Source of the DNA: Bacteroidota bacterium
GTDB taxonomy: Bacteria > Bacteroidota > Bacteroidia > Chitinophagales > Chitinophagaceae
Direction of reading: 5' to 3'
DNA: 64,000 nt
Assembly (NCBI GenBank): GCA_018268085.1
Contig: JAFDXE010000014.1
Span: forward strand, 8,140-72,139
In this document: positions 55,802 to 59,246 of the stretch, in pieces
Layout of the letters: each line of letters starts with the position of its first letter
Numbering within the stretch: the stretch's first letter is position 1
Translations under genes and position numbers: made by a program
Notes under the pieces: model-generated
What the model was told of the DNA's origin: nothing
Database searches by the model: none
Seen by the model: the letters and a program-made list of their open reading frames with translations, nothing else

Positions 55802-55991
55802 TGCACTGCAAAAAAACGATTGCCTGCCAAATATATTTTGATAGTTGTTCTATAGCAGCTTATTTATTTGTTAAAATAAATTTTATATTGTTATTGGCTC
55901 AACAGCGAATAACGGTTGAAGTGTGCGACGCCACTGAAGCGGAACAATGATCATTAGCCGGGACAAAAAATAAAAATACATATTGATTACA

Positions 55992-58900
55992 ATGGAATAT
56001 AATTTCAGGGAAATAGAAGAAAAATGGAGAGCGCAATGGAAGGCCGATAAACAATACAAAGTAGAAACGCCTGCAGGCGCAAATGCGAAGCCTAAATTTT
56101 ATGTGCTGGATATGTTTCCTTATCCGAGTGGAGCAGGGTTGCATGTAGGCCATCCGCTGGGATATATTGCCAGTGATATTTACAGCCGGTACAAGCGATT
56201 GAAAGGGTTTAATGTACTTCACCCGATGGGGTTCGACAGCTTTGGTTTACCTGCTGAACAATATGCAATTGAAACGGGGCAGCATCCTGCCGTAACCACA
56301 GAAAAAAATATTGCCACGTTTAAATCGCAGTTGGATAAAATAGGATTTTGTTACGACTGGGACAGGGAAGTGCGAACCAGTGAGCCGGGTTATTACAAAT
56401 GGACACAGTGGTTGTTTTTACAATTGTTTAATAGTTATTTCTGCAACACACAAAAAAAAGCAAGGCCTATAGCCGACCTGGTAAAAAAATATGAAACCAG
56501 CGGATCAAAAAATTTTACGGCTGCTCAATGGAACGCATACACGAAAAAAGAGCAGGAAGATATACTGATGAAGAGAAGGCTTGCCTATTCTGCCTATGGT
56601 GAAGTAAACTGGTGTGAAGCATTGGGTACGGTGCTGGCCAATGATGAAGTTGTAAATGGTGTGAGTGAACGTGGTGGATTCCCGGTTGTGAAAAAGAAAA
56701 TGAAACAATGGTATCTCAGGATTACCGCTTATGCCGATCGGTTGCTGGAGGGATTGGAAAAAGTAGCTTTTAGTGAAAGTATGAAAGAGATGCAGCGGAA
56801 CTGGATAGGGAAGAGCGAAGGTGCGGAAGTATCATTTGCCGTAAAAGATGCGGCTTGTAATATAAACGTGTACACAACCCGCCCGGATACTATTTTTGGC
56901 GTTGACTTTCTTGTATTGGCACCCGAGCATGAACTGGTGCAGAAAATTACTACTGTTGCACAAAAAGGAAAAGTTGAAGACTATCTTACTTATGTAAAAA
57001 GCCGCAGCGACCGGGAACGCATGGCCGAAGTGAAGCAGGTTACCGGTTGTTTTACCGGGGCGTATGCGGTGCATCCCTTTAGTGGAAAGCCGATACCGGT
57101 ATGGATCGCTGAATACGTTTTGGCAGGATATGGAACAGGAGCGATTATGGCGGTGCCTTGCGGCGACCAGCGTGATTATTTATTTGCAAAGCATTTTAAT
57201 ATTCCGGTTACCAACATTATTGGAGAAGAATACAATGGCAGTGAAGCAAATCCAACAAAGGATGCCGTTTTGCAGCAATCGGATTTTCTCGACGGTTTGA
57301 AGATGAAGGATGCAATTGGAGTTGCCATTAATAAAATTGAAGAAGCAGGTATTGGTAAACGTAAGGTGAATTTCAGGATGAGAGATGCCGGTTTCAGTCG
57401 CCAGCGTTACTGGGGTGAACCGTTTCCGATCGTTTGGGAAGATGATGTGGCTATTGCCTTAGATGAAAGTGAGTTGCCGCTTACTTTACCACATGTAGAT
57501 GCGTACGGGCCGGGTCCGGAAGGAGAAGGGCCGCTGGCGAATATTAAGGATTGGGTAGAGGTGAAAGGAAGGTTGAAAGAACAGGAATTTGTTGACCTCA
57601 CCCCTGACCCCTCTCCAAAGGAGAGGGGAACAATGCAGCCCGATCGCTACGGCTACATGAACAGCAGCGTTGAGGAATGGAAAAATACCATTCGGTTTGC
57701 TAAAGAAAACAGGAAAGATCCAACGTTGGAAGAAGATATCATCTGGCAGCGATTGAGAAACCGGCAGGTAGAAGGATGTAAGTTCCGTCGGCAGCATCCG
57801 GTAGCAGGATATATCCCGGATTTTATTTGCCTGGAGAAAAAACTGATTGTTGAAGTTGATGGTGCTTATCATAATGCGGCTGAACAAGTGAAATTTGATA
57901 TTGCCCGTGAAAAATGGTTAGCGGAATATGGTTATGTGATGGTGCGTATTACCAATGAAGAAATAAATAACAATGTTGCTGCCTCAATTGAAAAAATAAA
58001 AACGGCATTGCGTAATCAACCGGATTTTATTGTTGAAAACGAATTAAGCGCCCCTCTCCTTGGGAGAGGGGTTGGGGGTGAGGTCAAACGCGAAACCTCC
58101 ACCATGCCCGGTTATGCCGGTTCATCCTGGTATTTTTTACGATACATGGATCCGCATAACGATCAAACCTTTTGCGACCGCCACGCCAGCAACTACTGGA
58201 ACCAGGTAGATGTATATGTAGGCGGAACGGAACATGCCGTGGGACATTTGTTATACAGCCGCATGTGGACGAAAGTGATGTACGATCTTAACCTCATTGG
58301 ATTTGATGAACCTTTTAAGAAACTGGTTAACCAGGGGATGATCCAGGGAAGCAGCAGGTTCGTGTACCGGGTTAAAGGAACAAATACATTTGTTTCGGGT
58401 AACCTTAAGGGTGATTATGAAACGGATGAGCTGCACGTAGATGTAAATATTGTAGATGGCGTTGAACTGGACATTGATTCGTTTAAAAAATGGAAGACAG
58501 AATTTGCTACGGCCGAATTTATCCTTGAAAACGGCAGGTATATCTGCGGCGTGGAAACGGAAAAAATGAGTAAGCGTTATTACAACACCGTTGATCCTGT
58601 TGTACTAACTGATAAATACGGTGCCGATACTTTCCGTATGTATGAAATGTTTCTCGGCCCGGTTGAACAAAGCAAACCCTGGGATACAAAAGGTATTGAA
58701 GGGGTACACCGTTTTTTAAGAAAATTATGGCGTTTGTTTTTTGATGAAATGAAGGGTAGGGTTTGGAATACAGATGCTGCCACAGATGCAGAGCTGAAAG
58801 TTTTGCATAAAACGATTAAAAAAATTGAATCAGATACAGAGAATTTTTCTTTCAATACGGCCGTGAGCGCTTTCATGATTGCGGTAAATGAATTGTTTGA

Positions 58901-59246
58901 TCTGAAGTGTCATAAAAAAGAAATCCTGGAAAAGGTGCTGATCCTCCTTACGCCTTACGCACCACACATCGCAGAAGAATTATGGCAGCAGTTGGGCAAT
59001 GAAGGCTCAATCCTTAATGCAGTATACCCTGTTGCCGAAGAGAAGTATTTAGTGGAAACAAGCAAAGAATACCCGATCTCGGTAAATGGAAAACTTCGTA
59101 CAACCATTAGTATGGATGTAAACGCGTTGCAACCGGAAGTAGAACAAATAGTACTGGAAAATGATATTATTCAGAAATGGCTGGAAGGAAAATCGCCGAA
59201 GAAGATCATATTTGTGAAGGGGAAGATGGTGAATGTGGTGGTGTAA
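55992..59246 (+). CDS. leuS: Leucine--tRNA ligase with an internal DUF559-like endonuclease insertion
   Basis: MFPYPSG..LHVGH (HIGH), CP1 editing TTRPDT..G and GTGAIMAVP, FSRQRYWG, RETSTMP, KMSKR; 1084 aa from ATG 55992. Confidence 0.96.
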   Translation: MEYNFREIEEKWRAQWKADKQYKVETPAGANAKPKFYVLDMFPYPSGAGLHVGHPLGYIASDIYSRYKRLKGFNVLHPMGFDSFGLPAEQYAIETGQHPAVTTEKNIATFKSQLDKIGFCYDWDREVRTSEPGYYKWTQWLFLQLFNSYFCNTQKKARPIADLVKKYETSGSKNFTAAQWNAYTKKEQEDILMKRRLAYSAYGEVNWCEALGTVLANDEVVNGVSERGGFPVVKKKMKQWYLRITAYADRLLEGLEKVAFSESMKEMQRNWIGKSEGAEVSFAVKDAACNINVYTTRPDTIFGVDFLVLAPEHELVQKITTVAQKGKVEDYLTYVKSRSDRERMAEVKQVTGCFTGAYAVHPFSGKPIPVWIAEYVLAGYGTGAIMAVPCGDQRDYLFAKHFNIPVTNIIGEEYNGSEANPTKDAVLQQSDFLDGLKMKDAIGVAINKIEEAGIGKRKVNFRMRDAGFSRQRYWGEPFPIVWEDDVAIALDESELPLTLPHVDAYGPGPEGEGPLANIKDWVEVKGRLKEQEFVDLTPDPSPKERGTMQPDRYGYMNSSVEEWKNTIRFAKENRKDPTLEEDIIWQRLRNRQVEGCKFRRQHPVAGYIPDFICLEKKLIVEVDGAYHNAAEQVKFDIAREKWLAEYGYVMVRITNEEINNNVAASIEKIKTALRNQPDFIVENELSAPLLGRGVGGEVKRETSTMPGYAGSSWYFLRYMDPHNDQTFCDRHASNYWNQVDVYVGGTEHAVGHLLYSRMWTKVMYDLNLIGFDEPFKKLVNQGMIQGSSRFVYRVKGTNTFVSGNLKGDYETDELHVDVNIVDGVELDIDSFKKWKTEFATAEFILENGRYICGVETEKMSKRYYNTVDPVVLTDKYGADTFRMYEMFLGPVEQSKPWDTKGIEGVHRFLRKLWRLFFDEMKGRVWNTDAATDAELKVLHKTIKKIESDTENFSFNTAVSAFMIAVNELFDLKCHKKEILEKVLILLTPYAPHIAEELWQQLGNEGSILNAVYPVAEEKYLVETSKEYPISVNGKLRTTISMDVNALQPEVEQIVLENDIIQKWLEGKSPKKIIFVKGKMVNVVV
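57592..58087 (+). mobile_element. In-frame IR-bounded insertion encoding a DUF559/Vsr-like endonuclease domain
   Basis: 37-bp inverted repeats at 57592-57628 and 58051-58087 (34/37 match); enclosed peptide FRRQHPVAGYIPDFICLEKKLIVEVDGAYH. Confidence 0.78.

Follow-up and report, generated by a model that had tools for sequence, protein, structure and literature searches.

A DUF559 nuclease cassette with triplex-type inverted repeats, in frame within leucyl-tRNA synthetase of a Chitinophagaceae bacterium, as a candidate homing-like element

The 64,000-nucleotide stretch of DNA analysed here (the window; contig JAFDXE010000014.1, positions 8,140 to 72,139, of a Bacteroidota bacterium of the Chitinophagaceae) carries leuS, the gene for bacterial-type leucyl-tRNA synthetase (LeuRS), and within it, in frame, a block that encodes a DUF559 nuclease domain between two inverted repeats. 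We refer to the block as the cassette and to its terminal repeats as the arms. The host frame is uninterrupted, giving 1087 residues from a TTG at 55983 or 1084 residues from an ATG at 55992. A scan of the 3.86-Mb genome with the LeuRS model returned this gene as the sole hit over the model cut-off, and a second leuS copy that might relieve constraint was therefore rejected. Approximately 165 additional residues separate GPLANIKDW from RETSTMPG of LeuRS; by alignment they map between residues 476 and 487 of the Thermus thermophilus enzyme, a segment that we take from its structure to be the ZN2 module. The features, in positions of the window, are as follows.

55983 to 59246, plus strand: leuS, bacterial-type LeuRS, host of the cassette (open reading frame; TIGR00396, 934 bits)
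57564 to 57590, plus strand: KGRLKEQEF loop extension 5' of the left arm, present only in this genome
57592 to 58087, plus strand: whole cassette, 496 bp, as left arm, linker, DUF559, linker, right arm; in frame, about residues 537 to 702 of LeuRS
57592 to 57628, minus strand: left arm, encoding (V)DLTPDPSPKERG, with terminal TTGA (57592 to 57595), third-strand segment CCTCACCCC (57596 to 57604) and loop TGA; the arm as a whole is a triplex-type Y-loop-R-loop-R3 motif on the minus strand
57608 to 57628: hairpin of the left arm, CCCCTCTCC-AAA-GGAGAGGGG
57602 to 58066: segment missing from the short allele of sister strains, 465 nt (155 codons), from metagenome contigs
57690 to 58010, plus strand: DUF559/Vsr-like PD-(D/E)XK nuclease domain, residues 570 to 676, with the RRQ...D...E-x-D...H residues intact
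58051 to 58087, plus strand: right arm, encoding (A)PLLGRGVGGEV
58051 to 58071: hairpin of the right arm, CCCCTCTCC-TTG-GGAGAGGGG, followed by a second loop, TTG
58075 to 58087: end of the right arm, mirror segment GGGGTGAGG (58075 to 58083) and terminal TCAA (58084 to 58087)

The domain between the arms matches the Pfam family DUF559 (PF04480) over profile positions 4 to 108/109 with 105–110 bits (cut-off 20.6; E of 1.8e-30 to 8.5e-32) and NCBIfam PRK09767 with an E of 3e-22, and the closest solved sequence is PDB 3HRL (E of 3.8e-17). All of the motif residues are kept in this copy, namely RRQ, the Asp of PDF, the E-x-D of EVDG and the His. The nuclease core was predicted with a pLDDT of 76–95, and its best Foldseek folds were 3HRL (TM 0.79) and 3R3P, the catalytic domain of I-Bth0305I (TM 0.78, probability 1.00). 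The arm-coded ends scored below 50 without secondary structure and are predicted to be disordered Pro/Gly/Ser linkers; the full-length LeuRS model, with a mean pLDDT of 64.7, was too poor for domain packing. Weak Foldseek matches to the core were also returned for mitoribosomal proteins of Toxoplasma and Tetrahymena (9i05, 9g6k and 6z1p; E of 0.02–0.2). This is the only DUF559 copy in the genome, and the interior of the cassette has a GC content (40.8%) that matches that of its host (42–44%).

Pfam gave no Hint domain, and the residues expected at intein junctions (Cys/Ser/Thr at the start; His-Asn and then Cys/Ser/Thr at the end) are absent from an insert that runs from FVDLTP to GGEV/KRE; no Rfam intron family was found in 57300–58400 at E ≤ 1, and the frame is open throughout, so both an intein and a group I or II intron were rejected. 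The open frame indicates that the cassette would be translated as part of LeuRS; the single metatranscriptome, X21, has no coverage over the cassette. No transposase of the DDE, HUH or serine/tyrosine recombinase type was found in the insert, where the Pfam scan gave only DUF559 and MTES_1575. An internal start at ATG 57633, 4 nt past GGAGAGGGG, is not conserved in relatives, and its product would fuse the nuclease to the C-terminal part of LeuRS; this candidate was dropped.

The two arms are 37 nt long and 92% complementary, with all three differences in loops. When the two 3-nt loops are masked, both arms fit one pattern with zero mismatches, a pattern that had no match in 100 shuffles of the window. 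Each arm contains a 9-bp G/C hairpin (−10 to −11.7 kcal/mol; z of −2.1 to −3.4, from ViennaRNA folding, which models the hairpin and not a triplex), and in both the order of the design is perfect: a pyrimidine stem, a loop, a purine stem, a second loop and a mirror-image purine segment in which A may be T. A finder for this triplex design returned the two arms as the only G/C-rich hits in the window. Applied to the leuS genes of 105 species (this one and 104 further species of the same GTDB genus), it gave 91 hits in 29.5 kb of cassette as opposed to 39 in the 276.5 kb of host; further lone arms make up many of these 39. The left arm always lies on the minus strand and the right arm always on the plus strand, and the third segment co-varies with the stem between arm families (GGAGAAG/GATGAGG in the cassettes called type B below, GGGGAGA/AGAGGGG at icmF and GGAGGGG/GGGGAGG at metG). 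The arms have a GC content of 62–65% in a genome of 40% GC, and the full 37-nt arm is free of stops in four of the six frames; the idea that arms are open in all frames was discarded as an over-estimate.

These results agree with what the original prediction had read from the locus. Its single 1084-residue frame with an alien block before RETSTMP is confirmed as open, and its 37-bp inverted repeats at 57592–57628 and 58051–58087, with three differences, are present as described. The claim of an intact DUF559/Vsr-like core is borne out by the near full-length match to PF04480 with the motif residues in place, and that of a block lacking a transposase by a Pfam scan that gave only DUF559 and MTES_1575. 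Placement in the ZN2 loop holds in the alignment to T. thermophilus LeuRS.

The same codon of leuS was compared across the 105 species: a DUF559 cassette is present in 40, the site is empty in 64, and one species retains a 23-residue remnant. Two unrelated lineages occupy it, type A (33 species, including this copy; arms DLTPNPSPKERG ... SPLxxRGxGGEV) and type B (the five genomes G011, G055, G074, G091 and G114; arms PSLLHGVEKG ... SHPSPQSGEG). A LeuRS tree that excludes the insert columns requires at least 24 changes of occupancy, at least 15 of them forced by well-supported branches (shuffled mean 30.6), and the five type-B carriers never cluster. Thirteen of about 100 species have a cassette at a second leuS site, termed 315, on the margin of the editing domain; the occupants there belong to lineages C and D and, in one case, to B (for example L085 in G065, L068 in G081 and L128 in G063); type C at this site shares its arm sequence with the type-A cassette and has a different nuclease lineage. 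Elsewhere in the genus, DUF559 is found in frame in metG (two sites), metH, an icmF-type mutase and a restriction-modification methylase, and about 120 of the 150 best DUF559 hits in 121 genus genomes lie within open frames of at least 349 residues. The nuclease tree is ordered by insertion site, with 10 host-site changes (minimum 8, shuffled mean 28.5), and the sole clear site switch is that of type B, which occurs at both leuS sites. As judged from sequence, then, one leuS codon has been held by two unrelated lineages and each site has its own nuclease lineage. In a large protein collection, 349 clusters match the cassette region at E ≤ 1e-10 and nearly all of the best 120 are LeuRS; the matching clusters include a cultured carrier, Parafilimonas terrae, and the best non-self identity is 65%. 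Footprints remain in alleles scored as empty in G123 (TTGACCTCA, 14 nt, then GAGGTCA), G066, G106, G048 and G132, the DNA alignment of G065 and G066 being ambiguous for the exact ends of the deletion. In a separate case, a TAG in the cassette of the G015 leuS (L127/L012) splits the gene into frames of 463 and 566 residues, which is either an error of the metagenome-assembled genome or a two-piece LeuRS as in Aquifex.

The source organism is present in bioreactor, wastewater and activated-sludge metagenomes, and its named relatives are Ferruginibacter and other Chitinophagaceae. We compared public metagenome contigs with the leuS region for allele state. A 6932-nt contig from run X8 matches 56900–57601 at 98.4% and then directly 58067–58800 at 99.3%. 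At the joint, TTGACCTCAC abuts AGGGGTTGGGGGTGAGGTCAA with no letters between and none shared, and the termini of both repeats are kept; the short allele reads ..EFVDLTGVGGEVKRE.., its joined form folds as a 10-bp hairpin, and the sequence of this natural footprint allele is TTGACCTCACAGGGGTTGGGGGTGAGGTCAA. The identical joint occurs in six runs from at least five studies (X6, X8, X9, X10, X12 and X13), in which cassette depth is 0 and the flanks are covered. The long allele was found in X1 and X2, the runs from the source bioreactor, as well as in X5 and X7, with zero differences within the cassette. An assembly artefact was rejected given the lack of shared letters, the zero depth between covered flanks and the recurrence in six runs. 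A target that was never occupied was likewise rejected, since the 37-nt symmetry of the long allele extends past both breakpoints, which marks the short allele as derived by deletion. LeuRS thus functions in nature without the cassette, which is lost through in-frame deletions that leave the repeat termini behind. Three independent losses, at this site (57596–57601), in G123 (L095) and in G066 (L096), keep the left terminus as far as CCTCA(C); this shared breakpoint could mark a hot spot of cleavage, or it could result from the in-frame filter.

The descent of the cassettes was compared with that of their hosts. The nearest relative of this cassette is the G065 copy, at 66% over the core (range 62–66%), and the two are sisters both in the cassette tree (support 98/89) and in the LeuRS tree (94), in a clade that also holds G066, with its remnant, and the empty G009. 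This copy was therefore vertically inherited and lost repeatedly around it; on these comparisons it is old. Over all copies, cassette and host distances are correlated (Mantel r of 0.54; 0 of 2000 permutations). There are also conflicts. The LeuRS data reject the cassette sisters G050 and G062 (p of 1.7e-8) and G120 and G129 (p of 0.017), and the cassette data reject the host pair G120 and G094 (p of 0.0008). G062 is occupied while its 93%-identical relative G093 is empty, and 29% of sites in the 50 codons 3' of the G062 cassette are G050-like as opposed to 7% in the 100 codons before it (p of 0.007), an enrichment that is possibly a co-conversion tract; co-conversion was not seen around the G120 and G129 cassettes. 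The original prediction had suggested a comparison of insert and host trees, and its outcome is divided: the three conflicting pairs speak for exchange, and the Mantel correlation and the congruence of this copy do not.

Selection has acted on both components. The residues R, R, Q, D, E, D and H are invariant in 50–51 of 51 leuS cassettes of four types, and dN/dS is 0.04–0.17 for the cassette core, compared with 0.07–0.14 for LeuRS. Among 22 type-A copies, mean pairwise identity at third codon positions is 0.87 in the left arm and 0.90 in the right, as opposed to 0.50–0.55 in the best DUF559 motifs and 0.51–0.59 in LeuRS motifs. These values indicate purifying selection on the nuclease core as protein and on the arms as DNA.

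Arms also occur without a nuclease. The type-A hairpin is present in 39 of the 121 genus genomes, in 1–12 copies, and its reversed control in none. This genome has one cassette and one lone arm, TTGACCTCACCTCCAGCCCCTCTCCAAAGGAGAGGGG (contig C34:3540–3660; locus L004, about 1470–1600), which lies outside the window in the intergenic stretch that separates metF from a gene for an ABC-transporter ATPase; another, degenerate copy with an identical 16-nt leader, GGTTAATGAAATTTGG, follows 70 nt on, and DUF559 is not nearby. Arms are multiplied in tandem in G105, G128, G072 and G016. The G091 leuS (L078) has a unit of about 50 residues, consisting of a left and a right type-B arm with no nuclease, in frame at site 315, and the same unit is duplicated on either side of its DUF559 cassette at site 554; it resembles a miniature derivative that is not autonomous. 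Lone arms from a different family, also in frame (..SPVGGGMEGAG.. and ..SPVGGGLEGA..), occur in G130 (L156, alignment column 867) and G132 (L121, site 554), and this SPVGGG-type family is the one that flanks the icmF and metH cassettes. In metagenome runs X8 to X13 many short contigs match only an arm (57593–57633 or 58047–58090), at depths of up to 40–52, and continue into unrelated sequence; arms of this type are common in wastewater communities in other genomic settings. No such arms accompany seven of ten free-standing DUF559 genes.

We consider that the block is probably a selfish nuclease cassette with site-specific, homing-like behaviour, and that staying in frame is what makes it tolerated. 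It would consist of one gene-less open reading frame for a Vsr-like DUF559 endonuclease between G/C-rich arms, each able to form a hairpin and possibly a third strand. As a fusion to LeuRS, the nuclease would cut or nick cassette-free alleles of its own site once gene transfer had brought them together with an occupied allele, and repair would then copy the cassette into the cut allele. The conserved loop of an essential gene would serve as a refuge, exact in-frame deletions being the only ones to survive there. The arms would supply linkers that are free of stops in those four frames and would probably also provide a DNA structure needed by the nuclease or by the recombination step, a role that would explain nuclease-less arm pairs and lone arms as non-autonomous derivatives. 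The Vsr-like fold shared, in the predicted structure, with a real homing enzyme, I-Bth0305I, is counted as support. We infer both the movement of the element and the part of its own nuclease in driving that movement.

The original prediction of a homing-like mobile element is supported, in that the cassette is optional (64 of the 105 species are empty at the site, as are sister strains, and the block is not universal), its arm type recurs with DUF559 elsewhere (type C in leuS, and variants of the same design at icmF, metG, metH and the methylase gene) and the insert has strong nuclease homology; none of the outcomes that it had named as refuting was found. A number of points nevertheless weigh against the homing-like interpretation. 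For this copy itself only vertical descent and loss are visible. Its nearest relative is so distant that no recent gain is documented, and the Mantel correlation implies that most of the history of the cassettes is vertical. The conflicting pairs were picked after inspection of the trees, and another part of the G062 leuS is also mosaic. No target-site duplication was found, either here, where the flanks ..GAATTTG/TTGACC and GGTCAA/ACGCGA show no direct repeat, or in relatives. Homing in a haploid chromosome needs frequent exchange of DNA, and to our knowledge classical homing genes have no need of terminal repeats, which are not a feature of the known ones. Lone arms can outnumber nucleases (12 arms and one DUF559 in G072), and some other route may thus serve for their movement or multiplication. 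A benefit to the host, or a constraint on folding, could likewise account for the purifying selection on the domain.

The other route just mentioned leads to a different account, in which the arms are the active entity, as triplex or hairpin repeats like TMECO/BoxC or REP, and DUF559 is cargo caught between two of them. Spread would then occur through replication slippage, recombination or an unlinked host enzyme, and the frame would be kept to spare LeuRS. Lone arms that lack a nuclease (a single one here, as many as 12 in relatives and many in metagenome contigs), the tandem arms of four genomes, the nuclease-less in-frame pair of G091 and the conservation of arms as DNA all speak for it, as does the fact that Holder et al. 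tie TM repeats to instability with no partner protein (PMC4666352). We nevertheless think it unlikely. Cargo would not hold seven motif residues invariant in 51 copies or maintain a LeuRS-like dN/dS, and arm family and nuclease lineage are paired site by site. The arm hairpin is missing from 82 of the 121 genus genomes and follows the type-A cassette, and the free-standing DUF559 genes, most of them armless, argue against a simple build-up of arms around such genes.

If selection instead reflects service to the cell, the cassette could be a nuclease of the Vsr-like kind that the host has co-opted for repair or defence, tethered to LeuRS or using leuS for its expression, with ecology deciding whether it stays or goes. 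The strong purifying selection seen in the domain, its long vertical persistence and the precedent that DUF559/Vsr proteins can serve cells (PMC12907096) are compatible with this, which we nonetheless regard as distinctly unlikely: 64 of the 105 species and the commoner sister-strain allele manage without the cassette, and unrelated nuclease lineages at one codon, as well as in unrelated housekeeping hosts, fit a parasite and not a function of LeuRS. Takeover also leaves the DNA-level conservation of the arms unexplained. The same conservation bears on the view that an ancient insertion is drifting neutrally as a tolerated loop extension. The age of this copy, its host-like composition, the lack of a close relative (best 65%) and its ongoing loss in nature would suit such a relic, but it is contradicted by the sequence-based selection tests, that is, by the low dN/dS and invariant motif residues, by arms that are conserved at synonymous sites and held at high GC, and by the confinement of all three arm differences to loops. 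We hold it to be very improbable.

A homing-like cassette has parallels among known systems. Homing endonuclease genes of the I-Bth0305I type (EDxHD) share the Vsr-like PD-(D/E)XK fold, and they too lie at conserved sites of essential genes with a patchy distribution and site-specific lineages. As with homing genes, each lineage here keeps to one site and occupied and empty alleles occur among close relatives. The prototype is reportedly I-Bth0305I (PDB 3R3P), as Taylor et al. are said to have described in 2011. Genes of this type reside in group I introns or inteins, which are removed by splicing, whereas the cassette shows no splicing feature; they have the EDxHD motif without arms, and the cassette has the DUF559 motif set with terminal inverted triplex-type arms. 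Inteins likewise occupy conserved loops of essential proteins in frame, with one lineage per site and essentiality barring deletion, and pass through a cycle of invasion, persistence and precise loss. Unlike them, the cassette has no Hint domain or junction residues, and its sequence implies that the insert is retained in the mature protein.

Rickettsia palindromic elements are in-frame translated palindromes, which the nuclease-less arm pairs of G091 resemble, and they are not known to be related to the cassette in sequence. They encode no enzyme, in contrast to a cassette with an intact nuclease between its arms, and the likeness is one of lifestyle only; their description is reportedly that of Ogata et al. 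in 2000. REP sequences with their RAYT proteins are alike in concept, as dispersed hairpin repeats with a single-copy nuclease thought to act on them, but RAYT is a HUH/Y1 enzyme, REPs are extragenic, and there is no kinship of sequence or fold. Terminal inverted repeats are shared with transposons and miniature inverted-repeat transposable elements (MITEs), whose target duplication, transposase and multiple copies per genome were not found for the cassette.

The closest likeness in the arms is to the TMECO (BoxC) repeats of Escherichia coli, which have the same design and a near-identical core, CCCTCTCCC-TTGA-GGGAGAGGG-TTA-GGGTGAGGG, to be compared with CCCCTCTCC-TTG-GGAGAGGGG-TTG-GGGGTGAGG of the right arm. 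TMECO repeats form triplexes in vitro (Holder et al. 2015, PMC4666352), and inverted pairs occur in E. coli as well (Table 1 of that paper). The main text of the same paper ties TM repeats to genomic instability with no partner protein and never mentions an endonuclease. TMECO repeats are intergenic with no assigned protein partner, while the cassette arms bracket a nuclease frame and are translated. TMECO number 9 is located 168 nt downstream of ycjD, a DUF559 gene, in E. coli K-12 (NC_000913.3, 1351204–1351760; L169), and the C-terminus of YcjD, ..RRSPSP, resembles the arm-coded peptides. The right arm (58050–58085) also scored 19.2 bits against Rfam whalefall-1 (RF01762; gathering score 37), a motif proposed as RNA with unknown function, whose consensus, UCUCUCC-UUGG-GGAGAGA followed by AGGGUGAGGAC, resembles it. 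The match is under the gathering score and is therefore a resemblance only; the whalefall-1 'RNA' motif may really be a DNA arm of such elements.

Functional work on a DUF559 protein was found in the literature only for Caulobacter VsrA, for which there is genetic evidence of DNA damage in vivo without cognate methylation (PMC12907096). A 2012 survey of PD-(D/E)XK nucleases groups Vsr, DUF559, 3HRL and 3R3P and does not mention synthetases in its main text. Full-text literature searches turned up no account of housekeeping genes that carry DUF559 cassettes in frame. The strain-level deletion allele with its exact joint, the 105-species census of one site, the site-ordered nuclease tree and the synonymous-site conservation of the arms are new from this window. 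It is possible, although we are doubtful, that the cassette, as kin to homing nuclease genes, inteins and in-frame palindromic elements, merits a class of its own. Equally tentative is a wider proposal, in which the cassettes would be the autonomous members of an unrecognised class with a Vsr-like nuclease as sole protein and intrastrand-triplex ends, lacking expression signals and splicing and residing in frame within loops of essential enzymes. The still unexplained repeats of the TM/TMECO/BoxC type, found across many bacteria, and perhaps whalefall-1, would then be non-autonomous derivatives comparable to MITEs, and the CCTCA(C) breakpoint would be the cut site.

The strain-level polymorphism and the cultured carrier P. 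terrae make the question directly testable. If the homing-like interpretation is true, it would explain why annotation pipelines label many aminoacyl-tRNA synthetases, methionine synthases and mutases 'DUF559 domain-containing protein'. Engineering would gain site-specific nucleases of compact size, along with insertion sites in LeuRS or MetRS that are permissive by nature. Widespread triplex-type repeats, hitherto tied only to "genomic instability", would gain a function and a partner protein. Besides introns and inteins, there would be a third route by which a selfish nuclease can reside in an essential gene, as an extra protein domain kept in frame.

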